Positions 10,179 through 15,762 of a DNA stretch of 64,000 nt are shown one piece after another. Each line of letters opens with the position of its first letter. Within the stretch, counting starts at the first letter, position 1. The notes beneath the pieces were generated by a model that was not told the DNA's origin, ran no database searches, and saw only the letters and a program-made list of their open reading frames with translations. The DNA is from Spirochaetota bacterium (GTDB lineage: Bacteria > Spirochaetota > GWE2-31-10 > MWDO01), in contig JAVBQL010000001.1 in the NCBI GenBank assembly GCA_031549085.1, forward strand, positions 119,486 to 183,485, read 5' to 3'. The translations under genes and the position numbers were made by a program.

Positions 10179-11483
10179 ATGGACGACTACAAAAAGCTAA
10201 TCAAACTCTCGCTCCCAGTAATAGTTACCTACCTCTCATTTCACCTAATTGGTATAACCGATATGATTATGGTTGGCAGGCTTGGAAAAGAGGCAATCGC
10301 AAGCGTTGGACTTGCAATCACTGTTTGGATAGTTATCTTTTTTCCGCTTGAGTTCTTTTTCGAAACCGTTGTAATTCTCCTCTCCCGCGCCTTTGGAAAG
10401 GGGGATAAAAAACTATTTAAGAGCTACTACTATACAGAGATAATAATTGCATTGGTACTTGGATTTATTGCTCTCTTTTTTTACTTTCCACTAAAGATTA
10501 TTCTTGGATTTTTAACAAAAGATCCAGTGATATTAAAAATGGCAACACTATACCTCCTAACCGCAATGTTAAGATCTATTCCATTCACACTTGGACAAGT
10601 TTTTTCAAGAACCTTTATGGCCATACAGAGACCAAAATATATCACATACATATCAATCGCAACTACACTATTAAATATATTTCTAAACTATATCTTGATA
10701 TTTGGTAAACTTGGCTTTCCAAAACTTGGTGTCGTTGGTGCGGGAATTGCAAGCCTCATTGCAAGCATTTTTCAAGCAGGGATGCTATACTTATTCCTAA
10801 GAGTAAAGGTACGCCCCTTTATTAGTGATGATAAATTCACCCTCTCAAAACCGATGGTCAAAGAGATATTCAAGCTTGGAACACCATTGGCAGAGCTGAG
10901 CTTTTTAGAATCAATCTCTTGGGTAATATTTATAAGATTTATATCTCAATTGGGGGTGGCTCCATATGCCTCTCATGAGATTGCAATGAAGATCAAAGAT
11001 ATTGGTTTTCTGATGGGCTATGCTGTTGCGACAGTCTGCGGCTCCCTCGTTGGTGCATCGATGGGACAGAGTGATGAGAGCAGTGCAAGGAGGCTGACAA
11101 ACAAGTCGGTAATATTGGCAACTATATTTATGGTCGCCTTTGGTGTGCTATTTTTTATATTTCCAGATATCTTTACCTCCATGTTCACAGACGACAAAGA
11201 GGTAATTTTGATAAGCAGAAATATACTTAGAGTTATGGCTCTCTACCAAATTGCTGATGCTATATATCTTGTTTTTAGAAGCAGCCTCAATGCGATGAAG
11301 GATACAAAATTTGTTAGAAATATAAGCCTTATTGGGCTTTGGTGTCTGATGATTCCAGCAACATTTCTATTTGTGAATGTTTTTAAGATTGGTGTTATTG
11401 GTGCATGGATTGGACTAACTTTTCATGTTGCCTTTTGTGCGATCCTTTTTTGGCAAAGGTTTACAAAGAAGAGCTGGTCATAA
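10179..11483 (+). CDS. MATE family efflux transporter
   Basis: About 12 hydrophobic segments; TDMIMVGRLGKEAIASVG, FGKLGFPKLGVVGAGIAS and GVIGAWIG. Confidence 0.93.
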   Translation: MDDYKKLIKLSLPVIVTYLSFHLIGITDMIMVGRLGKEAIASVGLAITVWIVIFFPLEFFFETVVILLSRAFGKGDKKLFKSYYYTEIIIALVLGFIALFFYFPLKIILGFLTKDPVILKMATLYLLTAMLRSIPFTLGQVFSRTFMAIQRPKYITYISIATTLLNIFLNYILIFGKLGFPKLGVVGAGIASLIASIFQAGMLYLFLRVKVRPFISDDKFTLSKPMVKEIFKLGTPLAELSFLESISWVIFIRFISQLGVAPYASHEIAMKIKDIGFLMGYAVATVCGSLVGASMGQSDESSARRLTNKSVILATIFMVAFGVLFFIFPDIFTSMFTDDKEVILISRNILRVMALYQIADAIYLVFRSSLNAMKDTKFVRNISLIGLWCLMIPATFLFVNVFKIGVIGAWIGLTFHVAFCAILFWQRFTKKSWS

Positions 11484-11519
11484 TTTTTTAAGCAGCATTC
11501 ATCTATTTTACTCACAGTG

Positions 11520-11830
11520 ATATAAGGACTTGTACAGCTTTTATATTATTAATAATCCTATCCAATATAAAATGAGTTATCAAGTCTGTTCTCTAGGTTA
11601 CTGGTCAGTAGTAGCAGATATAATGAGTGAATGGTACTCAAAAAAAAGAGAAAGAAAAAAGAAAAAGTAAAAATGTATAGGGGGGATAAAATCCCACCCT
11701 ATACATTTTTATCCTCTCTCTTTCTCTTTTTTTTGAGCAGCGTTTTCTCGTTGTATATCTTCGTACTGACTAGGAAACTAGAAAGTAAAATGTACTAATA
11801 GTTTAATATTAATAGTATATTTATAACAAG
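11520..11830. repeat. Family A foldback element, copy A3 (reverse orientation; core about 11617-11759)
   Basis: Left flank AATCCTATCCAA and right flank ATATTAATAGTATAT are the reverse complements of the A1 flanks; tip GGGAT-AAA-ATCCC. Confidence 0.9.
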
Positions 11831-11884
11831 TAAGCTTTTTGTGTAGCTTCATATTAATGATAATTAAATACAAGTAATCAAAAT

Positions 11885-11921
11885 AAAAAAAGTGAGGTTA
11901 AAAAATAACCTCACTTTTTTT
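11885..11921. terminator. Intrinsic terminator, probably bidirectional, after the GatA-AspRS gene
   Basis: AAAAAAAGTGAGGTTA-AAAAA-TAACCTCACTTTTTTT, about 15 nt from the stop codon at 11936. Confidence 0.8.
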
Positions 11922-11935
11922 ACTTTTTTTTAAAT

Positions 11936-14743
11936 TTATGGAGAAACTCTACCTATATCTCTTGGGAATAGACACGCCTCTCTGACATTTGATAGTCCAA
12001 GTAGTTTCATAGTAAATCTTTCAAGTCCCATCCCCAATCCGCCATGTGGACACATTCCAAACTTGAATACACTTAGATACTCTTTAAAGCTCTCGGGATT
12101 TACTCCAAAATCAATCATATTGTTCTTTAGCATCTCATATTCATGAATTCTCTGTCCGCCTGTTGTTATCTCAAGCCCCTTATACAAAAGATCAAAAGAT
12201 CTAGTATAGCCTGGCAATCTCTCATCAGGCATTGCATACACTGGTCTCTTTTTTATAGGGTAGCCAAGGATATAGACAAAAGGAGAATCATATCTCTTCT
12301 GTATATAGTCACATACAGTTCGTTCGCCCTCAGGAGAGAGATCTCCGTCAAGATCCTTAACTCCCTCACGAGCAGCAATATCAAGCGCCTCTATAAAGTG
12401 GATCTTTGGAAATTTCTCAGGGATAACAATATCTTCACCAAATACATCTTTTATCAATGTACCATATTTTTCTTTAATATTGGTAAGAATATATTTAATT
12501 AAAGATTCTTGTATATTAACAAGTGTTAGTTCAGAATCTATGAAGCCCATCTCAAAATCGAGAGATACATACTCATTTAGATGTCTAATCGTATTGTGAA
12601 TCTCTGCCCTAAAGACCGGCCCAACCTCAAACACCCTCTCAAAACCACTTCCAACCATAGTCTGCTTATAGAACTGCGGAGATTGTGCCAAGAAAGCCGC
12701 TCTATCAAAGTATTTCAACTCAAAAACGTTACTTCCCCCCTCTGTCCCGCTTGATACAATCTTTGATGTCTTTATCTCTGTGAAGTCATTATTTCTCAAA
12801 AACTCACCGAATAGTCTAACTATTTCACTCTGTATCTTAAAGACTGTCAAAATCTTTGGCATTCTAACACTGATCATTCTATCATCTAGAAGTACTGGAA
12901 GGCTTATCTCCTCATATTTACCATTTATAGAGATTGGAAGCTCTGCATTTGAGTGTCCTAGAATCTTAATTTTTGAAGCTCTAACCTCGATGCCATTAAA
13001 TGGACTCTTTGGCTCTTTGACAACAGTGCCATGAACATCAATAACTGTCTCAAGGTGAAGCTTCTCTGAAAGATTGTTCTCAAAGACAACTTGAGTAAAA
13101 CCACCTCTGTCACGCAGAACAATGAATTCTATTCCGCCAAGCTTTTGAATTTTATGAATCCAACCCTTAACAACAACCTCTTTTCCAATATATTCTGGAA
13201 GCTTTGAAGACAACACTCTTCTGCTATCAACAATTGGAGCATTATAAGAGTCTGATATCTTTTTAATATCATCTGAACTATATTTTATTGACTCTTTTAC
13301 CTCTTCAAACTCTTTTTTTTTGATTATTACTCTCTTCTCTCTCTTTTTAAGAGCCTTTATCTTTTTTGGATCAATATTTTTATCTATTTTAACCTCTGAA
13401 AAGATCTTATCAGCAGCACCAATAACAGTTAGGTCTGAAAACTGCTTTCCAACAAGCTCTATTCCAAATGGAGTATCATCAATGGTATCCACTGGAATCG
13501 CAGCTGACGGTGAACCAATTAGGTTTGCTATCAAAGATGAAGCAACTGATGGATAATCAACATTAGAGAGATTTAGGTCATTAAAAGCAGGAAGAATAAC
13601 AAGATCATACTTCTCAAATATAGCATCAAACTTCTGCTTGATTAATGTTCTAACCTTTTGTGCCTTTTTGAAATATTTATCATAGTTGACACTGCTTAAC
13701 ATCAAGTTTCCAAGCATAATCTCTCTCTTTACATCAAAACCAAAGCCCTGATCTCTTGTATCAAAGAGCATATCATTGTATGTCACTTGGTTTGATGCTC
13801 TAAAACCATAGTTTACACCATCATACTTGCCCAAACTTGATGAACTCTCAGCAAAAGCTATTATCTTATATGTAGCAACCAACTCTGAAACAAGATCAAA
13901 ATCAACCTCATCAACAGTTATACCCATATTTTTAATAAGAGAGAGTGCTTTGTTAAATGAGTTTTTCACTTTGGCATCCAAAGGAAGACTCTTTATTGAT
14001 GCGATCTTTAATGACTTAAACTCTTTAGCAGGAGACAGCTTTAGATTATCAGCTCCATATGTAGAAGAGTCATATCTATCCTCTCCCTTTAAGATATTTA
14101 ACAACGTGGCAGCTCCTGATAGATCTGAAGAGGCAAAAGAGACTCTATCCAATGATGGAGCATTGCTTACAACACCATTGCCCGAAACCAAAGATGGTGT
14201 TGGCAAGAAAGATACTTGATTATTTGAAGTAATAAAAAATCTGTTTTTACCAGTATCAAGAGAGACACTTAACACCCCCATATCCAAAGCAACACCACTT
14301 GCTGCACCTATTGTTGAGAGCTTTGTGTTATATGGGTTTACTGATATATGTTCTGTTGAACCAAAATCAAACTCCAAAGTTGTTGACTTTCCAACAACAA
14401 TTCCGCCAGCCTCTTTTATCCTCTTTACTATAGTAGATTCAAAGATTGGCATATAGTCAGAGAGCATTTTGCTTCCGCATGTTGTTGGATAGTTCATATC
14501 ATGTATGTTGTCAGCTATGATAATAGGAAGCCCATCGATATCGCTTAATGGCTTGTTCTCTCTCCATCTCTTATCTGATAGAGCCGCTCTATTAATTAAT
14601 TCATCTTTATTGCCGAAAATCACAAAGGACTCTAAAAAGATATCAAACTCCTCGATTTGATTGAGAGTCTTTTTCATAATCTCTTCACAAGAAGTTTTTT
14701 TAGACTTTAAGTCTTCTTTCAATTGATAAAAACTCTTTTCCAT
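11936..14743 (-). CDS. aspS: Fusion of a GatA-like amidase domain (catalytically degenerate, aa ~1-450) and a short-type, probably non-discriminating aspartyl-tRNA synthetase (aa ~508-935)
   Basis: N half shows GatA signatures (AESSSSLGKYDGVNYG, GFGFDVKREIMLG, YFKKAQKVRTLI). C half shows the OB fold KGWIHKIQKLGGIEFIVLRDRGG, LAQSPQFYKQ, motif 2 FRAEIHNTIRHLNEY and motif 3 PHGGLGMGLERF. One uninterrupted ORF. Confidence 0.92.
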   Translation of the reverse strand: MEKSFYQLKEDLKSKKTSCEEIMKKTLNQIEEFDIFLESFVIFGNKDELINRAALSDKRWRENKPLSDIDGLPIIIADNIHDMNYPTTCGSKMLSDYMPIFESTIVKRIKEAGGIVVGKSTTLEFDFGSTEHISVNPYNTKLSTIGAASGVALDMGVLSVSLDTGKNRFFITSNNQVSFLPTPSLVSGNGVVSNAPSLDRVSFASSDLSGAATLLNILKGEDRYDSSTYGADNLKLSPAKEFKSLKIASIKSLPLDAKVKNSFNKALSLIKNMGITVDEVDFDLVSELVATYKIIAFAESSSSLGKYDGVNYGFRASNQVTYNDMLFDTRDQGFGFDVKREIMLGNLMLSSVNYDKYFKKAQKVRTLIKQKFDAIFEKYDLVILPAFNDLNLSNVDYPSVASSLIANLIGSPSAAIPVDTIDDTPFGIELVGKQFSDLTVIGAADKIFSEVKIDKNIDPKKIKALKKREKRVIIKKKEFEEVKESIKYSSDDIKKISDSYNAPIVDSRRVLSSKLPEYIGKEVVVKGWIHKIQKLGGIEFIVLRDRGGFTQVVFENNLSEKLHLETVIDVHGTVVKEPKSPFNGIEVRASKIKILGHSNAELPISINGKYEEISLPVLLDDRMISVRMPKILTVFKIQSEIVRLFGEFLRNNDFTEIKTSKIVSSGTEGGSNVFELKYFDRAAFLAQSPQFYKQTMVGSGFERVFEVGPVFRAEIHNTIRHLNEYVSLDFEMGFIDSELTLVNIQESLIKYILTNIKEKYGTLIKDVFGEDIVIPEKFPKIHFIEALDIAAREGVKDLDGDLSPEGERTVCDYIQKRYDSPFVYILGYPIKKRPVYAMPDERLPGYTRSFDLLYKGLEITTGGQRIHEYEMLKNNMIDFGVNPESFKEYLSVFKFGMCPHGGLGMGLERFTMKLLGLSNVREACLFPRDIGRVSP

Positions 14744-14883
14744 AAAAAACCGTCCTTTTTAAATAAAATTATTTTTTAAACTACTTTTATAAAAATACTA
14801 TTATATAAAATGTTAGTTCAATAAATCTCTCAAATAACACTTAAGGCAATTTCAAAAAAAAATCGACTCTACATAATTCCCTT

Positions 14884-14954
14884 GTAGGATAGAAGGCGAA
14901 AATCAAAGCTTTTTGTATTGCGTAGCATTAACAAAAAGCGGCATTTTTACCTAC
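14884..14954. repeat. Family B nested hairpin, copy B2 (variant)
   Basis: AAAAT-CAAAG-CTTTTTGT...ACAAAAAG-CGGC-ATTTT, closed by GTAGG/CCTAC. Confidence 0.6.
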
Positions 14955-14990
14955 TCAAACTATACCAAAAAAATCAAGTCTTTTACCTAA

Positions 14991-15100
14991 TTTTTGCATA
15001 TAGAGTATCAGTGGTATTGTCACAAAGATTTTTTCTTAATTGCTGAAAGCAATTTCAAAAAAATCGACTGACAATATTGCTGGTGCTCTATATGCAAAAA
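14991..15100. repeat. Family B nested hairpin, copy B3
   Basis: TTTTTGCATATAGAG/CTCTATATGCAAAAA outer stem, then TATTGTCA-CAAAG-ATTTTTT...AAAAAAAT-CGAC-TGACAATA. Confidence 0.8.
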
Positions 15101-15163
15101 TCGTAATATCCACAAGCAATGTTCTCTTTTTTTGATAAACAAAGCCTTTTATTCTATAATAAC

Positions 15164-15204
15164 CCCTCTTCTTGAACCCCCTTTATGTAAAGGGGACAGG
15201 GGGA
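15164..15204. repeat. Family C short hairpin (minus orientation, after folE stop)
   Basis: CCCCTTT-ATGT-AAAGGGG followed by ACAGGGGG; the core is the reverse complement of the 22760 copy. Confidence 0.7.
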
Positions 15205-15216
15205 TTAGTAATAAAA

Positions 15217-15762
15217 TTACTTCTTTGCAATAAGATTCAAAAACTCATTTCTTGTTCTGCTGTCAGATTTGAATCTCCCCTTCAGAGCACTTGTCATTGC
15301 ATAGCTATTTTGCTTTTCTACTCCCCTCATCATCATACAGAGGTGACTTGCCTCAAGGACAACTCCAACCCCAATTGGCTCTAATATCTCAACTATGGAC
15401 TCTGATATCTGTGTCGTAAGTCTCTCCTGAACCTGCAGCCTTCTTGAAAAATGTTCAACAATACGAGCAAGTTTTGACAAACCCAATATCTTCTTATTTG
15501 GTATATATCCAATGTGACACTTCCCAAAAAATGGCAGAAGATGGTGTTCGCAGAGTGAATAAAACTCTATATCTTTCACAATAACCATCTCATTATTTTC
15601 TGTCTCAAAGAGAGCCCCATTAATAACCGTTTTAAGATCGTCTCTATACCCTTTTGTCAAAAACTTGTATGCCTTCTCAACTCTACTTGGTGTTTTTAAA
15701 AGCCCCTCCCTATCAGGGTCTTCACCTATCTTAACAAGAATCTCTCTAATCAGCTTTTCCAT
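15217..15762 (-). CDS. folE: GTP cyclohydrolase I
   Basis: [46 protein letters not shown] and HLCMMMRGV. Start set at ATG 15762 (MEKLIRE). Confidence 0.97.

Follow-up and report, generated by a model that had tools for sequence, protein, structure and literature searches.

Does an amidase domain of the GatA type that is covalently joined to an aspartyl-tRNA synthetase (AspRS) still work as the glutaminase of a transamidosome? The question is raised by a gene in a 64,000-nucleotide stretch of a Spirochaetota genome (GenBank assembly GCA_031549085.1, contig JAVBQL010000001.1, positions 119,486 to 183,485), hereafter the window, in which an unbroken open reading frame (ORF) of 935 amino acids at 11936..14743 on the minus strand encodes, according to the ORF call and the Pfam and NCBIfam profiles, a pseudo-GatA domain, a linker and an archaeal-type, non-discriminating (ND) AspRS. 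The answer for this copy is very probably negative: we are highly confident that the fusion is real, that its glutaminase is dead and that its AspRS is intact. The amidase-signature domain covers residues 21-440 (13424..14683; Pfam Amidase, E 2e-57), and the Pfam profile is matched end to end, over positions 1-444 of 445. It is followed by a Lys/Glu-rich linker of about 70 residues, modelled with low confidence (residues 446-515, 13199..13408), which includes a conserved helix, KYSSDDIKKISDSY, shortly N-terminal of the AspRS (13244-13285), then by an OB-fold anticodon-binding domain (residues 523-595, 12959..13177; Pfam tRNA_anti-codon) and by a class II (D/K/N) catalytic core (residues 618-929, 11957..12892; Pfam tRNA-synt_2, E 3e-77), all on the minus strand. 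The initial annotation of this stretch, made from its letters alone, had placed a GatA-type N half at about 14743-13400 and an AspRS C half at about 13220-11936 of the same 935-residue frame, and these boundaries agree with the Pfam and NCBIfam domains.

A join of this kind, or a dead site next to it, might have been made by misassembly or sequencing errors, and the source genome is indeed a fragmented draft (2.68 Mb in 33 contigs, 88% complete). However, a search of 5.8 billion proteins recovered the combination of Amidase, tRNA_anti-codon and tRNA-synt_2, the architecture that the initial annotation had singled out for a search, in about 70 protein clusters at 42-53% identity, 66 of them full length and none closer than that range. 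The window's protein and the 66 full-length homologues have in common the colinear order of Amidase domain, linker, OB domain and class II core, together with a linker motif in which I493, S497, Y500, R509 and L515 are conserved in the fusion family; since they are colinear across the junction and conserve its motif, the join cannot be ascribed to faulty assembly. It had been considered that the join was misassembled, or that relatives would encode the two parts as separate genes, and it is the fused, colinear form that the 66 homologues share. In the dead site, in turn, substitutions number in the dozens and seven deletions keep the frame, which is not the pattern of isolated errors, and in the trees of the AspRS half, the GatB and the GatC-GatB protein the source genome has one and the same sister. 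An artefactual origin is accordingly hardly credible.

The 66 homologues and the window's protein, 67 sequences in all, were used to define a GatA-AspRS fusion family. Its named carriers, whose organism names come only from the protein-cluster search, are metagenome-assembled genomes of Spirochaetes/Spirochaetota, Candidatus Uabimicrobium amorphum and Chrysiogenales. Within the collection of genomes, most members of the order to which the window belongs carry the fusion, as do 30 of the 301 sampled genomes, or 16 of the 125 genera, of its phylum. The label that these proteins bear at NCBI and JGI is simply 'GatA', NCBIfam holds no model for GatA-AspRS, and no description of a GatA-AspRS fusion was found in the literature through searches and reviews. 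The initial annotation knew of no GatA-AspS fusion; this agrees with the lack of any publication that we could find, but not with the public databases, in which the architecture was already present under the name GatA. The architecture thus represents a conserved and apparently unstudied family.

The genomic context of the family indicates what the fusion is, or was, a part of. A gene for a GatC-GatB fusion lies directly downstream in 8 of the 15 related loci examined (L006, L007, L008, L009, L011, L015, L017, L018), an adjacency that is therefore frequent but not universal, and about 95 clusters of GatC-GatB proteins of around 590 residues were found, often on the same contigs as GatA-AspRS fusions. 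In these proteins GatC forms an in-frame N-terminal extension of GatB, both the R-x-D motif of GatC and the Mg/ATP motifs of GatB can be recognised, and the databases call them only 'GatB'. Where the GatC-GatB fusion is adjacent, as in 8 of 15 loci, the four protein components of an Asn-transamidosome are divided between two polypeptides, and an ancestral module of two genes that holds these components in two chains is well supported by context. In two genomes, G002 and G008, neither a standalone GatA nor a standalone GatB was detected, and the fused set appears to be their sole amidotransferase; a standalone GatB was likewise not detected in G001 and G005, and three further genomes (G004, G007, G010) contain the fused set together with an adjacent standalone gatA-gatB pair.

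Two genomes of the same family as the window's add to this picture. In G001 (locus L124, G001:C87) the fused-type GatA ORF stops after ..IPILN, at 490 residues, without the AspRS half, and reads DADGS where the family has DTGGS, and its congener G005 (L125, G005:C276) has an intact fusion that is split over two contigs. Both contain a 30%-identical match to class IIb synthetases that might be an asparaginyl-tRNA synthetase (AsnRS). The fusion seems to decay differently in different lineages.

Within this family the window's protein stands apart. Its GatA half was aligned with Staphylococcus aureus GatA (2df4) and with the 66 fused homologues, and the catalytic residues were read from that alignment. 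The catalytic Lys (S. aureus K79) is replaced by Ala77 in IIIADNI, where the homologues have KDN (14513..14515). The GGSSGGS(A) loop that holds the cis-Ser has become STIGAASG (14294..14317), with a deletion of four residues and with Thr144 in place of the cis-Ser (S. aureus S154), and GSDTGGS(I/V)RQP has become SLDTGKN-RF (14237..14263), with Asn167 at the position of Ser178, which in S. aureus GatA is the nucleophile of the amidase triad (PMC2330236). The residues for glutamine have been lost as well. Yeast R334 and D418, which are conserved in bacteria, hold the glutamine (PMC4027206); the Arg that binds its carboxylate (S. aureus R358, yeast R334) corresponds here to Glu341 in DVKREIM (13715..13735), and the loop of the glutamine-binding Asp (S. 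aureus D425, yeast D418) bears an eight-residue deletion after residue 396 and has Val400 instead of Asp (13520..13555). All these sites lie on the minus strand. Whereas every one of the 66 homologues has K, GGSSGGS and DTGGS at the three triad positions, the window's protein reads A, STIGA and DTGKN, and it is the only one of the 67 family members without the triad.

That the window's copy is an active GatA, which hydrolyses glutamine and channels the ammonia to GatB, would follow from the family, since it holds for the 66 homologues with intact triads and for the loci with adjacent gatC-gatB genes. It is refuted at the sequence level by the K77A change, the cis-Ser to Thr change with its loop deletion, the change of the nucleophile Ser to Asn, the Arg to Glu change and the loss of the Asp loop, as well as by the score against the gatA model (TIGR00132), which over residues 9-449 amounts to 299.3 bits, far under the equivalog cut-off of 481.1; we hold this possibility to be very remote. 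Because the whole glutaminase active site has been lost, the GatA half would be unable to supply ammonia, and it is almost certainly a pseudo-amidase that cannot be a working glutaminase subunit. The proposal in the initial annotation that the fusion hard-wires AspRS to the amidotransferase for channelling therefore fits the family, with its intact triads, its GatC-GatB adjacency and its ND-type residues, but not the window's own copy, which has neither triad nor glutamine-binding residues nor active-site loops.

The AspRS half presents the opposite picture. Residues 508-935 match the NCBIfam model for aspartate--tRNA(Asn) ligase, NF003483, with 529.4 bits against a cut-off of 353, and TIGR00458 with 417.1 bits against 368.4. 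Motif 2 (GPVFRAE, residues 708-714, 12602-12622) and motif 3 (GGLGMGLERF, residues 901-910, 12014-12043), which the initial annotation had described as intact in a complete AspRS, were both located, as was the Asp-binding QSPQ segment (residues 684-694, 12662-12694). In an alignment to 1b8a and 1n9w, His530 of GWIHK (13151-13165) falls on Thermococcus kodakarensis W26, and Pro581 of the anticodon-loop segment EPKSPFNG (residues 577-584, 12992-13015), likewise noticed earlier as an ND-like Pro, falls on K85. Feng et al. and Charron et al. are said to have found in 2003 that changes of the types W26 to His and K85 to Pro open discriminating archaeal AspRS to tRNA-Asn. The nearest solved relative is the ND-AspRS2 of the Thermus transamidosome (1n9w/3kfu, 343 bits). 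To judge from sequence, the AspRS half would be a complete archaeal-type enzyme of the non-discriminating type, predicted to be functional. The N half, then, probably does not belong to GatA proper, failing in the triad, the glutamine-binding residues and the hidden Markov model cut-off, while the C half has the features expected of an ND-type AspRS.

It could be asked whether this enzyme is also produced on its own. The full-length frame is preceded by a Shine-Dalgarno-like AAGGA 9 nt 5' of the ATG (14753..14757, minus strand). In or near the linker, only GTG510 and TTG511 are in frame as possible starts of an internal AspRS, and neither has a Shine-Dalgarno-like motif. A separate, internally initiated AspRS was rejected on these grounds, and the AspRS is thus made as part of the full-length protein.

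What the fused AspRS would be needed for becomes clear from the inventory of the source genome. The window contains neither gatB nor gatC, as had been noted at the outset, and both are encoded elsewhere: an inventory of asnS, gatA, gatB, gatC and further aspS copies yielded a separate GatA, GatB and GatC, a GatC-GatB fusion and a second AspRS, but no asnS. The standalone GatA (C23:176932-178320, minus strand) scores 494.6 bits against the gatA cut-off of 481.1 and keeps the K/S/S triad intact. The standalone GatB is on contig C10 and the standalone GatC on C31, and the GatC-GatB fusion (C17:10167-11960, minus strand) combines a GatB of 620 bits with an N-terminal GatC. In the 88% of the genome that is represented, no AsnRS, glutaminyl-tRNA synthetase (GlnRS), bacterial-type AspRS or asparagine synthetase AsnB was found, and tRNA-Asn(GTT), tRNA-Asp(GTC) and tRNA-Gln(TTG) are encoded by single genes. 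With no AsnRS, GlnRS or AsnB, transamidation is needed for both Asn and Gln, and the activity of the AspRS half would be essential because neither AsnRS nor asparagine synthetase is available.

The presence of an intact second amidotransferase offers an occasion for the loss of the fused glutaminase. The sister genome G004, however, has the same redundancy and still an active fused GatA; redundancy therefore made the loss possible without making it inevitable. With regard to the standalone GatA, it evolves fast (terminal branch of 1.46, against 0.14 for its sister), as both GatA paralogues of the source genome do; it retains 84 of 105 widely conserved columns, and the GatA-wide motif SSGYYD.YY is replaced in it by QGENNARIY.

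The second AspRS (C17:86300-87679, minus strand, 495.6 bits) is also of the archaeal type and belongs to a distinct subfamily that is conserved across the order (relatives L021, L022, L024, L025). It has Gln at the position of T. kodakarensis W26 and an L1 loop that is four residues longer and Lys-rich (IKDKSIIPNNYE). It is possible that it is the discriminating partner of the fused ND-type enzyme. By analogy with the AspRS pairs of Thermus and Deinococcus, a division of labour in which the fused AspRS would serve tRNA-Asn and the standalone one tRNA-Asp is plausible.

Why, then, has a dead domain been kept? The pattern of its divergence bears on this. Of the near-invariant columns of the family, 82/135 (61%) are kept in the GatA half and 130/135 (96%) in the AspRS half (Fisher p = 1.6e-13). 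The GatA half is about 37.5% (34-42%) identical to its homologues, whereas other pairs of equal AspRS divergence show 61% (minimum 54%). In a tree of GatA domains the window's copy lies inside the fused clade, beside genomes of the same family, on a terminal branch of 3.3 against 0.15 for its sister; the corresponding values are 0.50 and 0.22 for the AspRS halves and 0.57-0.58 and 0.15-0.16 for the two GatBs of the source genome. The GatA half has therefore sped up roughly 6-10-fold beyond the general 2-4-fold acceleration of the lineage. There are seven in-frame deletions in the GatA half and one in the AspRS; those of the GatA half remove 27 residues altogether, at most 8 at a time, and of the six internal ones four are at active-site loops. 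The 53 invariant columns that have changed include every one of the five catalytic or binding residues (p = 0.008), and such changes are more frequent within the amidase-signature stretch (27/52) than elsewhere (23/76; p = 0.017). Outside the signature, family-invariant columns are kept at 70%, and columns conserved only among close relatives at 43%. An AlphaFold2 model of the GatA-like domain superposes on S. aureus GatA (2df4_A) with a Foldseek TM of 0.86 and a root-mean-square deviation of 2.8 A. This model, used for fold assignment only, is confident for most of the GatA-like domain and poor for part of the AspRS core, which was modelled as a monomer of an obligate dimer and from a shallow alignment.

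These data can be read in two ways. According to one, the N-domain is a relic: once a standalone GatA-GatB-GatC had made the fused glutaminase redundant, it would have lost all function and be kept in frame only for the AspRS, which would be untethered, and GatC-GatB would now pair with the standalone GatA. The terminal branch of the GatA half, 22-fold longer than that of its sister when the AspRS and both GatBs show 2.3-3.8-fold, the 53 of 135 invariant columns changed and the seven in-frame deletions all agree with such decay; the lack of an internal start explains why the frame has been maintained, and the fast evolution of the intact standalone GatA might be expected if it were adapting to a second partner. 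Moreover, the operon with gatC-gatB is broken, and a terminator follows right behind the stop codon. On the other hand, a divergence of this size implies saturated neutral change, and yet 61% of the invariant columns and the whole fold signature remain; a useless segment of 1.4 kb would be expected to shorten under the deletion bias of bacteria, but only 27 codons have gone from it, mostly in active-site loops; the changes hit the active site preferentially and not uniformly; and the sister G004 is equally redundant with its fused GatA still active. Complete loss of function of the domain is thus a possibility to be taken seriously, though we would not bet on it. We favour relaxed but continuing purifying selection on the fold of the GatA half, as suggested by the patterns of retention, because neutral sequence at the 67% AspRS identity seen between genera would be saturated and eroded by deletion bias.

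If the fold is under selection, the question is for which role. It is possible that the domain has been neo-functionalised, its remodelled pocket binding another ligand or partner, for instance as a sensor of nitrogen status that would regulate the AspRS, with no relation to docking on GatB and GatC. Pseudo-enzymes often turn into regulators, and here the fold has been kept while every catalytic and glutamine-binding residue was replaced and the pocket loops were reshaped. Nothing was found that speaks positively for such a role: the lineage is a singleton in which no new conserved motif is definable, and the substitutions have the look of degeneration, not of convergence towards a new site. 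This explanation is thus improbable.

The reading that we prefer, at about even chances, is that the protein is a functional ND-AspRS carrying a pseudo-GatA that may have been retained as a structural or docking module. The AspRS half would still make Asp-tRNA(Asn), and perhaps Asp-tRNA(Asp). The dead domain, kept under relaxed but real purifying selection, would still occupy the position of GatA on GatC-GatB, or would at least stabilise the fusion chain, and the AspRS would thereby stay tethered to the kinase/transamidase GatB. The source of the amide nitrogen would be either the separate, intact GatA or free ammonia, a donor that amidotransferases accept in vitro. Two published observations make such a mechanism feasible: the amidotransferase AdT with an impaired glutaminase still transamidates with NH4Cl (PMC4027206), and the GatA look-alike Tse8 reportedly takes the place of GatA as a non-cognate part of the transamidosome (10.1101/733030). 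A more specific version, in which the pseudo-GatA and GatC-GatB form a tethered, glutaminase-less Asn-transamidosome that runs on free or other ammonia while the separate GatA, GatB and GatC serve Gln-tRNA(Gln), is put forward only tentatively.

Several points weigh against a retained docking module. The changes in 39% of the family-invariant GatA columns, and in 30% of those outside the signature region, together with the seven in-frame deletions, fit decay too. As the frame must stay open for a downstream AspRS that lacks an internal start, an open frame does not by itself demonstrate function. Among the 5.8 billion proteins no close relative sharing this dead domain was found, so that the lineage is a singleton, and in the source genome the gatC-gatB gene is not adjacent to the fusion gene. 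Since the alignment behind the fold prediction was made of active homologues, the prediction is biased toward the fold of GatA, and at 88% completeness the absence of asnS, glnS and asnB from the source genome is not certain.

Among the closest known systems is the Asn-transamidosome found in Thermus thermophilus, which consists of ND-AspRS2, GatCAB and tRNA-Asn (PDB 3KFU; AspRS2, 1N9W). Its AspRS2 is the best solved relative of the window's AspRS half, the AlphaFold2 model of the GatA-like half superposes on its GatA with a TM of 0.85-0.86, the logic of the pathway is the same, with Asp-tRNA(Asn) passed to GatB, and a second AspRS is present in the genome, as in the source genome. Known transamidosomes are non-covalent and scaffolded by the tRNA (PMC3367201); the window's AspRS, in contrast, is covalently joined at the position of GatA, and this GatA is catalytically dead. 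With the GatA-AspRS family, as found for example in Ca. Uabimicrobium amorphum and in Spirochaetes bacterium GWF1_31_7, the window's protein shares the domain order, the linker motif and the ND-type AspRS, and it branches inside the clade, but it has neither the triad nor a downstream gatC-gatB. Other covalent links between AspRS and the amidotransferase exist. In the bifunctional AspRS-GatC (NCBIfam NF009460 / PRK12820) the AspRS is of the bacterial type and GatC is at the C-terminus; the window's protein scores only 100 bits against this model, for which the cut-off is 1379. In the GatB-AspRS fusions of Oscillospiraceae and Ruminococcus, of about 957 residues, it is GatB and not GatA that is fused; such fusions were observed in the protein search (P0075-P0093) and on genome contigs (L058, L090, L093, L097). 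Tse8 of Pseudomonas aeruginosa, as an amidase-family GatA look-alike, is a precedent for a GatA-like protein that is no glutaminase and docks on GatB/GatC (10.1101/733030); it differs in being a secreted inter-bacterial toxin that is not fused to AspRS and is distant in sequence (35.8 bits to structure 6te4).

A scan of genome contigs retrieved mainly Clostridia with separate aspS, gatA and gatB genes, and some GatB-AspRS fusions; the spirochaete fusions were not among its matches. In dozens of genomes of Lachnospiraceae and Oscillospiraceae (L042-L119) an archaeal-type aspS lies directly upstream of gatA-gatB, with room for gatC. The catalytic triad is kept in 44 of the 46 clostridial gatA genes that adjoin an archaeal-type aspS, and the idea that a dead GatA might be a general trait of aspS-linked gatA was rejected for this reason. 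The AspRS-GatC model NF009460 matched nothing but ordinary AspRS in 6 genomes of Clostridia, and in 250 more it gave no match at E <= 1e-220, a threshold that was probably too strict.

Transamidosomes are a textbook case of substrate channelling that guards the genetic code against mis-charged Asp-tRNA(Asn). A family that combines GatA-AspRS with GatC-GatB would give a two-chain complex of fixed stoichiometry, ideal for structural and kinetic study of how the acceptor end is handed over. The window's copy would be a natural experiment, in which a genome that still depends on transamidation for Asn and Gln has kept the tether and disabled the glutaminase. It raises the question of whether selection keeps the tether rather than the ammonia source, and of whether GatB runs on free ammonia. 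If the domain is indeed a docking module, it would be a natural enzyme subunit that was turned into a tether in the translation apparatus, and one that derives from an undescribed two-polypeptide transamidosome. The database label 'GatA' gives no hint of either the fusion or the lost activity.

As to the surroundings of the gene, a strong, perfect-stem, bidirectional intrinsic terminator hairpin (11880..11926) begins 10 nt past the stop codon and is followed by a convergent MATE gene, so that there is no co-transcribed downstream partner in the window. An Rfam scan of 11400-15400 gave no T-box and no other leader, and promoter-like sites were not above the expectation from shuffled sequence. 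Two further, long hairpins flank the fusion gene, one with 41-nt arms and an 8-nt loop (11645-11734) and the other, between folE and the fusion gene, with 33-nt arms and a 46-nt loop (14990-15101). They are unrelated to each other, and the Rfam matches to miRNA families at these places (11634-11744, 14990-15101) are generic hairpin look-alikes.

Elsewhere in the source genome, a lysyl-tRNA synthetase of 697 residues (C15:147416-149533, minus strand) carries a C-terminal HDIG/HD-domain extension, and ARAGORN called a 95-nt tRNA-like gene with a four-base anticodon (atgg) at C17:143202-143296, which could be either a spurious call or an atypical tRNA.

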